Part shown: positions 1,262 to 11,268 of the stretch, in pieces | Numbering within the stretch: the stretch's first letter is position 1 | Layout of the letters: each line of letters opens with the position of its first letter | Sequence record: OM362897.1 | Strand: one strand, 5' to 3' | DNA: 64,000 nucleotides | Source of the DNA: Escherichia phage SKA64 | Position numbers and translations under genes: made by a program | Notes under the pieces: model-generated | What the model was told of the DNA's origin: nothing | Databases searched by the model: none | What the model saw: only the letters and a program-made list of their open reading frames with translations

Positions 1262-1696
1262 ATGTTACAAGTTCCTGCTAAGTTTGTTGAAGGCGCTATC
1301 CACTCTTACCGTCAAACATGTAAGAGGGCAAGAAACTGTTTAGATGGTCTGGTGGCAAAAACCTATACTGTTGAAAAGAAGAAACGTTGGTTTGGCAAAG
1401 ATGTTTACGAAGTTAATATTTTTGGTGAACATAAACTAAACCACGATACTCCTGAAAACATGTTAGAAATATTTCTAAGAGATGACAAAATATCTCCTAT
1501 GGATTACCAACTTTTAAAATTTTATGATTCTTCTTTGGCTATTGATAAGTTTGTTGAAGATATTCTGTCTAGAAAAACAGATAAAAACACTTATCCTCTA
1601 GAAGCTGATCAAATAGGATTATTAAACGAGATTTCATCCTTTAAAGAGTTGGATAATATTACAAAAGAGGAGATTTTAGATGGCATTAGATTATGA
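1262..1696 (+). CDS. hypothetical protein
   Basis: ORF track; AGGAG upstream; same-strand packing. Confidence 0.55.
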   Translation: MLQVPAKFVEGAIHSYRQTCKRARNCLDGLVAKTYTVEKKKRWFGKDVYEVNIFGEHKLNHDTPENMLEIFLRDDKISPMDYQLLKFYDSSLAIDKFVEDILSRKTDKNTYPLEADQIGLLNEISSFKELDNITKEEILDGIRL

Positions 1697-2189
1697 TCGC
1701 CCAACGAGCGATTATTATCCAACACCGCAAAAAGCAATCAATAGTTTGTTTAGTGTTATAGATTTCAAAAATCTAAAGGAAGAAGGTTGGGTTTTTGCAG
1801 AACCTTGCAGAGGTGAAGCTGAAGCGATTTATCGCCATTTTCCTGAAGGTTCAGAATATTGCGAACTTGAAGAAGGTAAAGATTATTTTAGTCATGAATG
1901 GGAAAATCGTCCCGACATTATAATCACAAATCCTCCATTTAAGTTAGCAATGGAGTTCTTGGAAAAGAGCTTAAAAGAGGCGGATGTTTGTATTTATCTT
2001 CTTCGGTTGGGCTTCTTGGAGTCAAAGAAACGACGAGAGTTCCATCAAAAGAATCCACCAACAAACCTTATAGTCCTTTCAGAACGGCCTTCGTTTGTTG
2101 CAGGTGGAACAGATAAGACAGCATACGCTTGGTATGTATACGACCCAAAGAATCGTTTGGGCCTCTCTCAACCATTTTATTTTGTTTAA
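1680..2189 (+). CDS. short Rossmann-fold methyltransferase-like protein (NPPF motif; N6-adenine/amino-MTase-like)
   Basis: FAEPCRGEAEAI (motif I-like) then IIITNPPF (motif IV of amino-methyltransferases); only 169 aa. Confidence 0.45.
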   Translation: MALDYDRPTSDYYPTPQKAINSLFSVIDFKNLKEEGWVFAEPCRGEAEAIYRHFPEGSEYCELEEGKDYFSHEWENRPDIIITNPPFKLAMEFLEKSLKEADVCIYLLRLGFLESKKRREFHQKNPPTNLIVLSERPSFVAGGTDKTAYAWYVYDPKNRLGLSQPFYFV

Positions 2190-2686: not shown

Positions 2687-2881
2687 ATGCAGAGCGGAGA
2701 AGAACTTTTAGAGAAACAATTCTCAACGCGTCAACAAGCTTTAAGTTATATGGTTTTTCTAAGCAATCTTGATGTGAATGAGATACTTTTACGGCGCGAA
2801 GGTAATTTCTGGAGCGTTAAATATCATGCAACAAGGTCTGTAATCTACCTGGAAGAGGCGGAATTCTCTTTGGTAGAATGA
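2687..2881 (+). CDS. hypothetical protein
   Basis: ORF track; AAGGAGGG RBS. Confidence 0.5.
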   Translation: MQSGEELLEKQFSTRQQALSYMVFLSNLDVNEILLRREGNFWSVKYHATRSVIYLEEAEFSLVE

Positions 2882-2895
2882 TCCGAGGAGTAGTT

Positions 2896-3468
2896 ATGCG
2901 TTCAACTTTCACTGGCAAAATAAATGCTGGTTTGATTTTTACAGCAGTAAGCATTCTTAGCAAAAAGTTTAAAGTTGTTAACTTACCTGTGTGTGTCGAT
3001 TTCGATCATGTTTTTGATCCTTCGAACCCCACTCGTTGCATAGTAAGGAGTAATGTTGAAAACCCAACAGAAAATCTTTTTTATGTAACAAAACCATCTC
3101 AAAGCATACTTAACCAGGTTGAGGCGAAATTGATACCTAACGGTAAATATTACTCCTTTTTACCTTGTAAGTCGGTTGAAGTAGAGAATAGCAATACTTT
3201 CGCTAATAACTTGTCTGTATTCGTTTTCTTTGTTTCACAGGAAGACGAAACAGATGAAATGGTAGCAACAGTGAGATCACTTTATGACTCTTTAGGGGTT
3301 GTTTATAGTCAACAAGTGTGCGAAAATAATAAAGCCTGTGTAGATTTCATTATCAACGGTATTTGTGTTTGTAGAGTAGAATCTTTTTGGCTGCACGATA
3401 CATATGTGACTGTAGCAGAGGTTATATCTGAACCAAGATTTAGTCATGCGGTTTCGTTAATAATTTGA
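2896..3468 (+). CDS. hypothetical protein
   Basis: ORF track 2878..3468; ATG at 2896 after GAGGAG chosen. Confidence 0.55.
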   Translation: MRSTFTGKINAGLIFTAVSILSKKFKVVNLPVCVDFDHVFDPSNPTRCIVRSNVENPTENLFYVTKPSQSILNQVEAKLIPNGKYYSFLPCKSVEVENSNTFANNLSVFVFFVSQEDETDEMVATVRSLYDSLGVVYSQQVCENNKACVDFIINGICVCRVESFWLHDTYVTVAEVISEPRFSHAVSLII

Positions 3469-5947: not shown

Positions 5948-6216
5948 CAAGTTTTGAAAGTAACTTCGTTACCGCTTGGGAAGCTTGGGATGAAATGGGT
6001 GTTGGGGAACTTTATTTTTACAATGTAACACTACGTCCAGAGTATGCTTACCTGGTACCAGAAGGAACAGTTCAAATTGGCATGTATTTGTCTTCTCAAG
6101 ACGGTGTTGTTCAATTTGAGTTTTATTCTAACACAACGGACAACGAATTTACATACCGCGCATTTCATGTCAACATGTCTTTAGGAGAGGAGAAATTTTA
6201 TGACGACCAAGTTTAA
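5926..6216 (+). CDS. hypothetical protein
   Basis: ORF track; GAGGAGG upstream. Confidence 0.45.
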   Translation: MAEFGSVTSFESNFVTAWEAWDEMGVGELYFYNVTLRPEYAYLVPEGTVQIGMYLSSQDGVVQFEFYSNTTDNEFTYRAFHVNMSLGEEKFYDDQV

Positions 6217-6397
6217 AACAGTAGAAGAAGCCGTAAAAGCAGCTTATGAGGCTTTAGCGGAAGCAGAACAGTTAGCAGACGAGACTGGTGAAGGTTTCAG
6301 TTTCTCCCCTGAATATGGGATGGGTGGTTATTATGATCCAGAAGATGAAAATGAGAATACTGGAACAAATTGGCATCCATCTTCTTTAAGTTGTTAA
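6200..6397 (+). CDS. small acidic protein, member of tandem family with C-terminal W-x-SS-x-SC
   Basis: ORF track; ends TNWHPSSLSC. Confidence 0.5.
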   Translation: MTTKFKTVEEAVKAAYEALAEAEQLADETGEGFSFSPEYGMGGYYDPEDENENTGTNWHPSSLSC

Positions 6398-6408: not shown

Positions 6409-6678
6409 GTGGGAATCGAAGATATCAAAGGTTATAAACCGCATACCGATGACAAAATTGGTAAAGTGAATGCTATTAAAGATGCTGAAGTTCGATTAGG
6501 ATTAATCTTTGATGCTCTAATGTCTGAATTGTGGGCTGAACTGGATGATTGTGAAGATTTGGAAGAGTCTACCAATATATCCACCCGCCTTGACCAAATT
6601 TCAATAGCAAAGACTAAGTTGAAAGAAGCTTCTATGTGGGCCTGTCGTTCCGTTTTCCAACCAGAGGAGAAATACTAA
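6409..6678 (+). CDS. hypothetical protein
   Basis: in-frame GTG at 6409 after AGGAGG (6399-6404) preferred over track start 6370. Confidence 0.4.
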   Translation: MGIEDIKGYKPHTDDKIGKVNAIKDAEVRLGLIFDALMSELWAELDDCEDLEESTNISTRLDQISIAKTKLKEASMWACRSVFQPEEKY

Positions 6679-6896
6679 TGAGTTATCGTAATGTTGAAGA
6701 ATTAACTGAAAAAGCCCAAGCTATTATGGCTTTGGTGGACGAACTTACAAAAGAAGCTGAAGATGCTGGTTTTGGTCTTAGTTTAGAAGATGACGCAATC
6801 TGTTTTGAAGATTGGCAATCCTCTTCTTGTTATGGTGAAGGTGATGATGGTTTCGTTGTTAATTCTCAAGGCGTTTGGCACAGTAGTAGCTGTTAA
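6678..6896 (+). CDS. small acidic protein, tandem family member
   Basis: ATG 6678 after GAGGAG; ends QGVWHSSSC. Confidence 0.5.
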   Translation: MSYRNVEELTEKAQAIMALVDELTKEAEDAGFGLSLEDDAICFEDWQSSSCYGEGDDGFVVNSQGVWHSSSC

Positions 6897-6905
6897 GGAG
6901 AGATT

Positions 6906-7178
6906 GTGGAGTCTGAAGGTGAACTGCTGATAAAAAAGAAAGTTAAAGAGATGGAACAAGCACAAAGAAAGTTTCGTAAGGAAATTGAAGAACTTTGTGA
7001 ACAGTTTCAGGAACAAGCTTGGATAGGTGACTACGGTAACGGAGAAACTTATTACCCTACAGGAACGCCAGCCGCAGATCACTATATTGATTTCATTTGT
7101 GAAGATTATGGTGTAGAGTTGGATGAAAATGGTTTAACCACAAGAGGTGTTTGGATCTCTTCTTCCTCAATGTGTTAG
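6906..7178 (+). CDS. small acidic protein, tandem family member
   Basis: GTG 6906 after AAGGAGAG; ends RGVWISSSSMC. Confidence 0.5.
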   Translation: MESEGELLIKKKVKEMEQAQRKFRKEIEELCEQFQEQAWIGDYGNGETYYPTGTPAADHYIDFICEDYGVELDENGLTTRGVWISSSSMC

Positions 7179-7268: not shown

Positions 7269-8210
7269 ATGGTGTTAATTGGTAGCCGTGCATTACAAAT
7301 TCATGCTATGGACATGGGAAAAGACTTGTATCGCCCTTGTGTAGATTTAGATTACCTGTGTACAGAACAAGAGTGGGAAGAATTATCAAAAATGTTCTCT
7401 CAAGACGAGTTTGTTGAACTTGTAGAACGTAAAGGGAGCAAAGGCCATGTCAAAATGATAGCTGGTGCACATTTGGAATACGATATTGCTTCTCAAGGAG
7501 ATAGCACAGAAGCTTTGATTAGTTATTGTGAAGATTCTGATGATGTTCGTCGAACTTACGCTGGACATGTTGTTGCTCCTTTAGATGTGCTCTACCTTCT
7601 TAAAATGAGTCATCGTTTTAAAAAGGATAGTCCTCACTTCTTTAAAACTATGAAAGATATTCATTTCATGCGGTCACTGGGCGCAAAGATCCCAGAAAAT
7701 CTTAAGAGTATTTATGAGTTGCGTGAGAAAGAAACATACACTTACTCTCATCCGAACTTAAACGTAAAAAGTAAAGAGTTCTTTAAAGGTGACGAGGTTC
7801 CGTATGTTTATGATCATGATTCTATCCATGAAGCAATCGCGTTAATGGATGCTCCAGCATATAAATCTTATATGAAAGATGGAAGTGAAGTTATGACCAG
7901 CAAAGAAAAGTTTTTTGCTCAACCAAAACATGTGCGGCTGTTAGGTGTTTATGAAGAAGCGTGTGTTTTGGCTTTGGAACGTTCACAAATTCCTTTCGGT
8001 GAAGAGATCGGAGGTCCAACCCCTAAGCAAAGTTTTATAATGGCTTTATCTAAAGTCTGCACATCCATCACTAGTGGTTGGTTTAGGGAATATGCTTGGG
8101 AAAACTTTTATGTTGTTATTAAGCTATATGAAAACATGGGCGAAAACGACTATGTTGAACGTTTTAAAGCTAATCAACATGTAGTAAAGCCTTTTGAAGG
8201 AGGTTATTAA
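7269..8210 (+). CDS. hypothetical protein (313 aa); weak minimal-nucleotidyltransferase-like N-terminus
   Basis: ORF track; AGAGGAG RBS; N-terminal LIGSRAL...VDLDYL loosely resembles GS...DxD NTase signature (spacing atypical). Confidence 0.55.
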   Translation: MVLIGSRALQIHAMDMGKDLYRPCVDLDYLCTEQEWEELSKMFSQDEFVELVERKGSKGHVKMIAGAHLEYDIASQGDSTEALISYCEDSDDVRRTYAGHVVAPLDVLYLLKMSHRFKKDSPHFFKTMKDIHFMRSLGAKIPENLKSIYELREKETYTYSHPNLNVKSKEFFKGDEVPYVYDHDSIHEAIALMDAPAYKSYMKDGSEVMTSKEKFFAQPKHVRLLGVYEEACVLALERSQIPFGEEIGGPTPKQSFIMALSKVCTSITSGWFREYAWENFYVVIKLYENMGENDYVERFKANQHVVKPFEGGY

Positions 8211-8211
8211 T

Positions 8212-8607
8212 ATGTGTGGATATCTTTCAGAAAGTTATTTCAAAGTGACGCATGAGGATTTAGAAAAAGCACGATTGAAACTGACAGCTATTATTGAATA
8301 CTCTAATACTGTTGAACACAGATTAAAGACTACTAAAGTATCTGTTCCTTGTTGGTTAGGTTTACGGCATAAAATAATGTCTCAACATGACCATGTTGTT
8401 CGAGAGATGCATGGTTGGTGTTGGTTTCACGATGTGGCTCTGCATTTTGGTTATATTACAGAAGAAGAGCATAGATTCTGTGAACTAACATATCGTATTC
8501 CAACCCTTCACGATTTAGATTTGTGGAAGAAAGCAAACGAGATTTTTCTTACAGAAAGTGATTGGCGTAAAGTTATGGCTTGTCTTGAATGGAGGGGTAA
8601 TGAGTAA
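8212..8607 (+). CDS. hypothetical protein
   Basis: ATG 8212 after GAAGGAGG preferred over TTG 8194. Confidence 0.55.
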   Translation: MCGYLSESYFKVTHEDLEKARLKLTAIIEYSNTVEHRLKTTKVSVPCWLGLRHKIMSQHDHVVREMHGWCWFHDVALHFGYITEEEHRFCELTYRIPTLHDLDLWKKANEIFLTESDWRKVMACLEWRGNE

Positions 8608-9991: not shown

Positions 9992-10483
9992 ATGTTTCAA
10001 GTAGAAATTCATGTGCACAACAGTTGTTCAAATTGCGAGACTTGTGGTTACAATAGTTCAACCATGATCACTATTAGCGGAGACTTAGGAGATGCCAAGT
10101 TTGGCGAAGTCGCAAGCTGCTTCAGCGGAGAGGATGCAGATTGGCATGATATTGCACACTGGTTGGTGAGCAAACTAAAAGAAAAAGAGAAACCATTTCC
10201 TACTCTGCTTGATCGTTCTCTTGTGGAAGATGCAGGTAAAGCATATGCAGACTATGCGTATGCAGACGGGAAATATTTGGAAGATGATAAGGCTAACCAT
10301 TTGCTTTATGTTTACTATGAAGCTGAATCTGCCTACGATAATTATTACAGCATGTCCAACATTCTACGTTTGTTTGCGGAGTTTGATATTTACTTTGAAG
10401 TGAGTTATTCTCAAGACGAAGTGTACGATTTGGATGACGAAGATTATGATGATTATGAGGAGGAAGAATGCCAAGACGATTAA
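9992..10483 (+). CDS. hypothetical Cys-containing protein with acidic tail
   Basis: ATG 9992 after GGGAGG; track start 9980 lies in terminator T-tract. Confidence 0.55.
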   Translation: MFQVEIHVHNSCSNCETCGYNSSTMITISGDLGDAKFGEVASCFSGEDADWHDIAHWLVSKLKEKEKPFPTLLDRSLVEDAGKAYADYAYADGKYLEDDKANHLLYVYYEAESAYDNYYSMSNILRLFAEFDIYFEVSYSQDEVYDLDDEDYDDYEEEECQDD

Positions 10484-11268
10484 TAGTGATCAGCGGCGCG
10501 GGTCTAAGCGCCGATAGCGGTGTACGTACTTTCCGCACTGACACAGAAAGTGGCAAAGCTTTGTGGGATGAATACGACCTTTCTGAAGTGTGCGACATTT
10601 TCAACTTCCGTGCTGGATACCAACAAGAACAGTGTGTTCCTGGGGCTGTTGGCGGATTAGATGCAGAGGGATACAACCTCTACCGTAAAACTCATGACTT
10701 CTACAATAAACGTCGCGTAGAGATGGATAGTGTAACTCCTAACGCTGCGCATTACCAGATCGCGGAATGGTTCCAAGAGTACGGCTGTGATCGTGTTATC
10801 AACATCACGACAAACGTAGATGATCTTCTGGAACAAGCAGGTGTTGTTCATGAAGATGTTCTACATGTTCACGGCTTCCTGCCTGAAGTGATCGTAGACA
10901 ATAGAATCATCAAAGATGTTGGCTATGCTGCTATCGATGTGGATGATTACAAGTATGTGAAGCCCAATGTAGTGTTCTTTGGGGAGACTGCCCCATTGTA
11001 TAACGATATGTACCACATCTTAGACGGCTTGACGGCTCAAGATATGGTGATTGTAGTGGGTTGCTCTAATCAAGTTATCAATTTTAACTGGGAGCTTTTT
11101 CCTGCTCTTAACATCGGAACAAAAATGGTTGTAGTTAACCCTGGAGTTAATTACGAAGAAACACTTCTCTATGAAGATCGTGGAGTTTTTGTTTACCGAG
11201 AAAAAGCTGCAACAGCCTTCAGCAATGAAGGTTTCATTAAAATGGTCGAAGACCACTTAAACAAATAA
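10468..11268 (+). CDS. Sir2-family (sirtuin-like) NAD-binding protein
   Basis: GAGLSADSGVRTFR, TTNVDDL, LHVHG, VVFFGE sirtuin motifs; no Cx2C...Cx2C zinc module seen. Confidence 0.8.
   Translation: MPRRLIVISGAGLSADSGVRTFRTDTESGKALWDEYDLSEVCDIFNFRAGYQQEQCVPGAVGGLDAEGYNLYRKTHDFYNKRRVEMDSVTPNAAHYQIAEWFQEYGCDRVINITTNVDDLLEQAGVVHEDVLHVHGFLPEVIVDNRIIKDVGYAAIDVDDYKYVKPNVVFFGETAPLYNDMYHILDGLTAQDMVIVVGCSNQVINFNWELFPALNIGTKMVVVNPGVNYEETLLYEDRGVFVYREKAATAFSNEGFIKMVEDHLNK

Follow-up and report, generated by a model that had tools for sequence, protein, structure and literature searches.

The 169-aa protein encoded near the beginning of the analysed DNA of Escherichia phage SKA64 (OM362897.1; 64,000 nt, hereafter the window) is predicted to be an active enzyme with a gamma-class-type adenine methyltransferase core and without a target-recognition domain (TRD). 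This prediction follows from a confident class-I fold, collinear profile matches, and motifs that are invariant or nearly so. We favour, with a probability of about 0.6, a stand-alone SAM-dependent N6-adenine methyltransferase consisting of a trimmed gamma-class catalytic domain, which would have a short or degenerate DNA specificity and serve as an orphan phage modification enzyme. The assignment to the methyltransferases is sound, and the gene belongs to a very common phage family in which it has already been catalogued and annotated.

Gene and Upstream Region

The window comes from a phAPEC8-like Escherichia myovirus of the genus Phapecoctavirus; vB_EcoM_UP17 is 99.7% identical to it over 6 kb. 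The methyltransferase ORF starts with ATG inside the 3′ end of the upstream ORF 1262-1696, with an overlap of 17 nt. The coordinates of the gene, its ribosome-binding signal, and its motifs are collected in Table 1. A terminator-like scan detected, on both strands, a GC-rich hairpin, TGCCCC-TTCG-GGGGCA (1222-1237), directly after the HslV-like peptidase gene, and this hairpin probably marks the beginning of a transcription unit that includes ORF 1262-1696 and the methyltransferase.

Table 1: Coordinates of the methyltransferase gene and its features in the window.
Feature	Position	Strand	Remarks
CDS, 169-aa TRD-less amino-methyltransferase	1680-2189, including stop codon	+	ORF list; PHROG 799; identical annotated phage proteins; AlphaFold2 model
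Shine-Dalgarno sequence AAGAGGAG	1665-1672	+	Strong; 7 nt before the methyltransferase ATG; read off the sequence
Motif X-like, DYYPTP, D11-P16	1710-1727	+	T15 unchanged in all 43 sequences of the first alignment
Motif I, AdoMet-binding loop FAEPCRGEAEAI	1794-1829	+	Core E41-P42-C43-R44-G45 at 1800-1814
Motif II-like, end of strand 2, Y60-C61-E62	1857-1865	+	E62 nearly invariant
Motif III-like, D68-Y69-F70	1881-1889	+	DY nearly invariant; aligns with "DFL" of M.TaqI
Motif IV, strand 4 and catalytic loop, D79-IIITNPPF-87	1914-1940	+	NPPF at 1929-1940
Motif VIII-like, R136-P137-S138-F139	2085-2096	+	R136, P137, and F139 unchanged in all 87 aligned sequences
Loop S134-A148 between the last strands	2079-2123	+	Least confident part of the model; pLDDT 74-86 for residues 131-150

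Fold and Motifs

The AlphaFold2 model was obtained from an alignment of 43 sequences (A1) and reached a pLDDT of 90.4 and a pTM of 0.86. The model has the class-I SAM-methyltransferase fold in a trimmed form, in which the Rossmann-like seven-stranded sheet and the AdoMet-binding loop after strand 1 are present and several Rossmann helices are missing. HsdM, M.TaqI, and CamA occupied the top ranks in Foldseek. The best single structural neighbour was the rRNA m6A methyltransferase PH1948/METTL5, and Erm/KsgA scored near the DNA enzymes, so the fold alone leaves the substrate unfixed. Family members and other phage methylases made up all the results of the fold search in BFVD. The alignments to catalytic domains take up 141-159 of the 169 residues, which leaves no room for a TRD and bears out the remark of the initial annotation that none was obvious.

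When the A1 profile was compared with the PDB the matches were marginal (best E=0.016). The profile of a broader alignment of 87 sequences (A2) was the one that reached significance: it matched M.TaqI (1.7e-6), HsdM StySJI (2e-6), PacII (1.5e-5), ErmAM (6.6e-5), and BseCI (2.3e-4), and its matches with M.TaqI and HsdM were collinear through motifs X, I, and IV, in the order of the gamma class. The complete order in the protein is X (DYYPTP), I (EPCRG), II (E62), III (DY), IV (TNPPF), and VIII (RPSF), with neither a TRD nor a partner specificity subunit. Motif I occupies residues 39-50 and NPPF residues 84-87, exactly as had been read in the initial annotation.

Residues D11, Y13, T15, and P16 are conserved in at least 90% of A2, and in the profile search DYYPTP aligns with "ETP" of M.TaqI and "YFTP" of HsdM. 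In motif I, whose counterpart in M.TaqI is LEPACAHG, E41, P42, and C43 are invariant and G45 is at least 90% conserved. By what is generally known of class-I methyltransferases, E62 would bind the ribose of AdoMet. T83, N84, P85, and P86 are invariant in A1 and are followed by F or Y, which corresponds to the (D/N/S)PP(Y/F) motif of amino-methyltransferases. W151 is also invariant or nearly so in the alignments. By analogy with F196 of M.TaqI, F139 would stack on the flipped target base.

Family Membership and Distribution

The PHROG 799 "DNA methyltransferase" HMM matched residues 4-163 of the protein with E=2.8e-59 (202.5 bits), which places it in that family. Proteins 100% identical to it occur in many deposited phage genomes, for example, AV126 and ECML-183-2, under labels that vary from "hypothetical protein" to "DNA methylase," "putative DNA methyltransferase," and "DNA N-6-adenine methyltransferase." The PHROG 799 and GenBank annotation "DNA (N-6-adenine) methyltransferase" is itself a motif-based one. 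Single-sequence searches of Pfam, NCBIfam, and the PDB gave nothing significant or above threshold; EcoRI_methylase had the best Pfam score, 14.7 bits, where the cut-off is 26.4, and across the 43 members N6_Mtase (PF02384), Eco57I (PF07669), and EcoRI_methylase (PF13651) gave only sub-threshold matches. The segment of motif IV is the only part that weakly matches the Pfam models EcoRI_methylase, MTS, Eco57I, and Dam. The protein was also considered as a component of a known defence system, and this was rejected, since PADLOC returned just a weak generic MTase_II match (E=3.6e-4) around motif IV.

Homologs were found by tblastn in 543 phage records, among them rV5-, PVP-SE1-, and phi92-like myoviruses, Vibrio K139-like and Aeromonas temperate phages, and phages of Campylobacter, Listeria, Staphylococcus, Streptococcus, Geobacillus, and Microbacterium. 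The family is found in phages that infect Proteobacteria, Firmicutes, and Actinobacteria. A profile search against 1.84 billion cluster representatives retrieved 13,740 clusters (50% identity) at E<=1e-3, of which 7,176 remained at the stricter E<=1e-10. Almost all of the best 150 clusters have lengths of 158-226 aa, so 169 aa is the norm for this family: the protein, which had been described as unusually short, is short with respect to classical DNA methyltransferases and not within its own family.

In the records MG065644-MG065684, labelled as Campylobacter jejuni phages ("Campylobacter phage" A138, A12a, C2, C7, and others), the gene is 98-100% identical to the methyltransferase of the E. 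coli phage rV5, and the genomes are of vequintavirus-like size. It is likely that these are E. coli phages that were given the wrong label or entered as contaminants.

The PHROG 799-type family has no Pfam or NCBIfam model and no solved structure, and in the literature on phAPEC8, rV5, Phapecoctavirus, K139, and phage methylomes we found no measured target specificity, methylome, or enzyme assay for any of its members. Defining its target would reveal how some 170 residues, with no recognition domain, suffice to pick a substrate, and would aid the reading of phage methylomes and of the interactions between phages and restriction-modification (RM) systems; a compact methylation tool may also come from it. 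For the SKA64 window itself the methyltransferase matters little, being a routine annotated gene.

Nature of the Substrate

The substrate is probably DNA, with methylation at N6 of adenine. DNA is favoured by the top profile relatives, which are DNA enzymes, by the presence of homologs in replication, recombination, and nucleotide-metabolism modules, and by their clustering with canonical DNA methylases. In the Vibrio phage VPUSM 8 the homolog lies immediately upstream of rep, and in a Streptococcus prophage it is near RecT and a Holliday-junction resolvase. Among the divergent loci, one has the homolog adjoining ERF, another has it with a RuvB-like gene on one side and GIY-YIG, DnaB, and PolA genes on the other, and in another a dCTP deaminase is nearby. 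At locus L008 it clusters with two MethyltransfD12 genes and a PF05869 Dam gene, and at loci L014 and L016 it is found with PF00145 C5 methylases.

It is unlikely that the protein is instead an RNA N6-adenine (or N2-guanine) methyltransferase of host or phage tRNA or rRNA, which would tune translation or guard tRNAs from anticodon-nuclease defences. The rRNA methylase that is its best single structural neighbour points in that direction, as do the RNA-related genes near some homologs in large myoviruses: a tRNA nucleotidyltransferase and Trna.2 in PVP-SE1, RtcB at locus L006, and, in the SKA64 window itself, the gene matching a "histidyl tRNA synthetase"-like PHROG. However, these neighbours are not conserved, the DNA enzymes TaqI and HsdM head the sequence-profile ranking, and the family is common among small temperate phages, within replication and recombination modules and beside bona fide DNA methylases. 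METTL5 requires TRMT112, and we know of no Trm112-like partner.

Considering that the same (D/N/S)PP(Y/F) chemistry is used by N4-cytosine DNA methyltransferases and by protein (Gln/Lys) methyltransferases of the HemK/PrmC type, these activities were also weighed. Both are very unlikely, because such enzymes rank well below the adenine enzymes in the structure and profile searches and the gene context is one of DNA replication and modification.

Target Choice without a Recognition Domain

No gene was conserved beside the homologs across ten divergent loci (phAPEC8, rV5, PVP-SE1, Vibrio, Streptococcus, and metagenomic), and since no neighbour is shared by phAPEC8-, rV5-, and PVP-SE1-like phages and the other loci, an HsdS-like partner is absent. 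The two adjacent genes were considered as a separate specificity subunit and rejected: neither the upstream ORF 1262-1696 nor the downstream ORF 2202-2438 has a homolog beside the rV5 gene.

In two metagenomic proteins, P0215 (560 aa) and P0243 (448 aa), the whole domain is duplicated in tandem, a natural arrangement that is rare. In the latter, motif IV of copy 1 is degenerate (IHPPSEY, with NPP(Y/F) lost), while copy 2 keeps TNPPY. These duplications, one of them with a degenerate copy, suggest that the working unit may be a dimer. Both proteins have ahead of the domains a hydrophobic, signal-peptide-like N-terminus (MRLKKLLMSTLLAVLELSSVCNA...), which is odd for a nucleic-acid enzyme. In the search for informative domain fusions, the long members found were tandem duplications of this domain only, apart from zinc-ribbon or low-complexity tails, and there was no fusion with a nuclease, ParB, an RNA-binding domain, or another domain that would point to a function.

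A Cys4 zinc-ribbon is inserted in the loop after motif VIII in P0038, P0083, and P0105, and a zinc-ribbon tail is present in some members. Taking into account that the insertions fall at the position of loop 134-148, we infer that this loop is a candidate for the minimal substrate-recognition element. A bolder proposal is that of a truly minimal adenine methyltransferase that chooses its target without a TRD, either as an obligate dimer reading a short site through loop 134-148 or by acting on a substrate other than double-stranded DNA (single-stranded replication or packaging intermediates, or tRNA). We consider it a long shot. If true, it would mean a new recognition mode in a family that is among the largest of the phage enzymes yet to be characterised (>13,000 clusters), and tRNA methylation might blunt tRNA-targeting defences.

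Restriction and Palindrome Content

The initial annotation had proposed a minimal anti-restriction methylase. In its strong form this would be a non-specific adenine DNA methylase of the EcoGII/Hia5 style, whose broad methylation of adenines, exerted with no TRD, would act as a general shield against restriction. The absence of a TRD and the phage-borne, orphan condition of the gene agree with it, and there is a prophage precedent: M.EcoGII is a prophage-borne non-specific adenine methylase (PMC5778455).

The behaviour of related phages points the other way. In the BASEL study the Vequintavirinae and their relatives were "exceptionally susceptible" to RM systems, apparently without effective protection (PMC8594841). 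The BASEL vequintaviruses RudolfGeigy, JohannBauhin, and DrSchubert encode the rV5-type homolog, with at least 99.4% identity to the rV5 protein; since these RM-sensitive phages carry it, no protective phenotype is seen. This argument is indirect, as it concerns phages other than SKA64, whose protein is ~48% identical to the rV5 homolog. The RM panel of that study reportedly includes type II enzymes sensitive to m6A, such as EcoRI and EcoRV.

The composition of the window argues in the same sense. GGCC, GTAC, CCGG, and CTAG are strongly avoided (observed/expected 0.29-0.41 by Markov expectation), and CTGCAG, CGATCG, CCATGG, CAGCTG, and AGCGCT, with 6-12 copies expected, are absent. If the whole genome were methylated, there would be little reason for it to avoid restriction-type palindromes, among which are the adenine-containing GTAC and CTAG as well as CTGCAG, CCATGG, and CAGCTG. 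We therefore regard a non-specific shield as very doubtful; of the earlier proposal, the broad form is weakened by the susceptible vequintaviruses and the methyltransferase assignment stands. GGCC and CCGG are avoided although the phage carries a C5-type methylase gene.

The palindrome pattern fits a narrow specificity that would stay hidden in assays with E. coli K-12, rather than an EcoGII-like activity. GATC, with 342 sites and a ratio of 1.10, is the least avoided 4-bp palindrome in the window. The one experimental hint is that DNA of phage CB7 resists ClaI (PMC7344957), a result that could be explained by host Dam, whose effect is inseparable from that of the phage enzyme. On the basis of the non-avoidance and of this ClaI result, a Dam-like GATC target is one candidate, given that the host already methylates GATC; the palindrome statistics are compatible with GATC methylation and do not amount to a demonstration of it.

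A protein that is no longer an enzyme, being an inactive remnant or one that binds or sequesters SAM, would agree with the trimming of some canonical Rossmann helices and with the lack of a reported phenotype. This is extremely improbable, as purifying selection acts strongly on all the AdoMet-binding and catalytic motifs in thousands of clusters.

Proposed Mechanism

According to the N6-adenine methyltransferase reading, AdoMet would be held by motifs I-III, and the target adenine would be flipped into the pocket formed by N84-P85-P86-F87 and F139, where its N6 would be methylated. The substrate would most likely be phage and host DNA during infection. The enzyme, probably a homodimer, would contact it through loops of the catalytic domain, notably 134-148, and through the conserved arginines R109, R118, and R136. 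Contacts of this kind would give a short or degenerate specificity, Dam-like GATC being one possibility. Its role would be that of an orphan phage modification enzyme and not of a broad-spectrum restriction shield.

Other Genes of the Window

A second short methyltransferase gene is located at 8558/8600-9283 (+) and encodes 227-241 aa. It matches PHROG 757 "DNA methyltransferase" (E=1.8e-84), has no Pfam match, and shows weak similarity of the C5-cytosine type (M.HaeIII, E=0.08; PADLOC DruM, 3e-4); its protein contains the motifs FDGSG, FPPC, and ENPVG. Like the 169-aa protein, it looks too short for a normal TRD.

ORF 2878-3468 (+), of 196 aa, matches PHROG 4806 "histidyl tRNA synthetase" (E=3e-64). 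The label, inherited in RefSeq, looks doubtful, since this length is far too short for HisRS and there is no Pfam match. The small acidic ORFs 6200-6397, 6636-6896, and 6906-7178 (+) have similar C-termini (...WHPSSLSC, ...VWHSSSC, and ...VWISSSSMC), which points to a group of local paralogs that share a conserved Trp-x-Ser-rich-Cys tail. ORF 7269-8210 (+), of 313 aa, is composed of two recently defined domains, DUF7277 (E=1.8e-13) and DUF7275 (E=1.2e-75). ORF 10468-11268 (+), of 266 aa, begins with MPRRLIVISGAGLSADSGVRTFR, which resembles the NAD-binding motif GAGxSxxxGxxxFR of Sir2-family deacetylases; judging by this motif, it may be a phage-encoded sirtuin-like protein.

Comparison with Known Systems

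The 169-aa protein is distantly related to the gamma-class DNA adenine methyltransferases and would work like them. The members of that class (M.TaqI, type I HsdM, MmeI, BseCI, PacII, and CamA) have 380-1500 aa and a C-terminal TRD or HsdS, whereas the phage protein has neither; its motif I loop is shortened (EPC-RG), several Rossmann helices are absent, and it falls below all Pfam thresholds. It thus departs from gamma-class membership in two features, the TRD or S subunit and the Pfam gathering scores. METTL5/PH1948 and Erm/KsgA are cellular housekeeping or resistance enzymes that act on rRNA, while the PHROG 799-type family is phage-borne and located in DNA replication and modification modules.

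The PF05869 "Dam" proteins (~170 aa) are likewise small, phage-encoded, and poor in TRD, carry NPPF/Y after a TP motif as the 169-aa protein does, and share loci with the family. Membership in PF05869 was rejected: hhalign gave a probability of 11% against a member of that family, PF05869 was not reported for the 169-aa protein, and sub-threshold matches appeared in 12 of the 43 homologs, the best of them (E=0.0046) below the cut-off. M.EcoGII is similar in being an orphan, phage-associated adenine methylase and offers a conceptual precedent for reduced sequence specificity, but no sequence relationship between it and the SKA64 protein was detected. In comparison with the PHROG 799 and GenBank N-6-adenine methyltransferases of rV5-, PVP-SE1-, phAPEC8-, and phi92-like phages and of temperate phages, the protein is equal in length and motifs and shows no structural difference.
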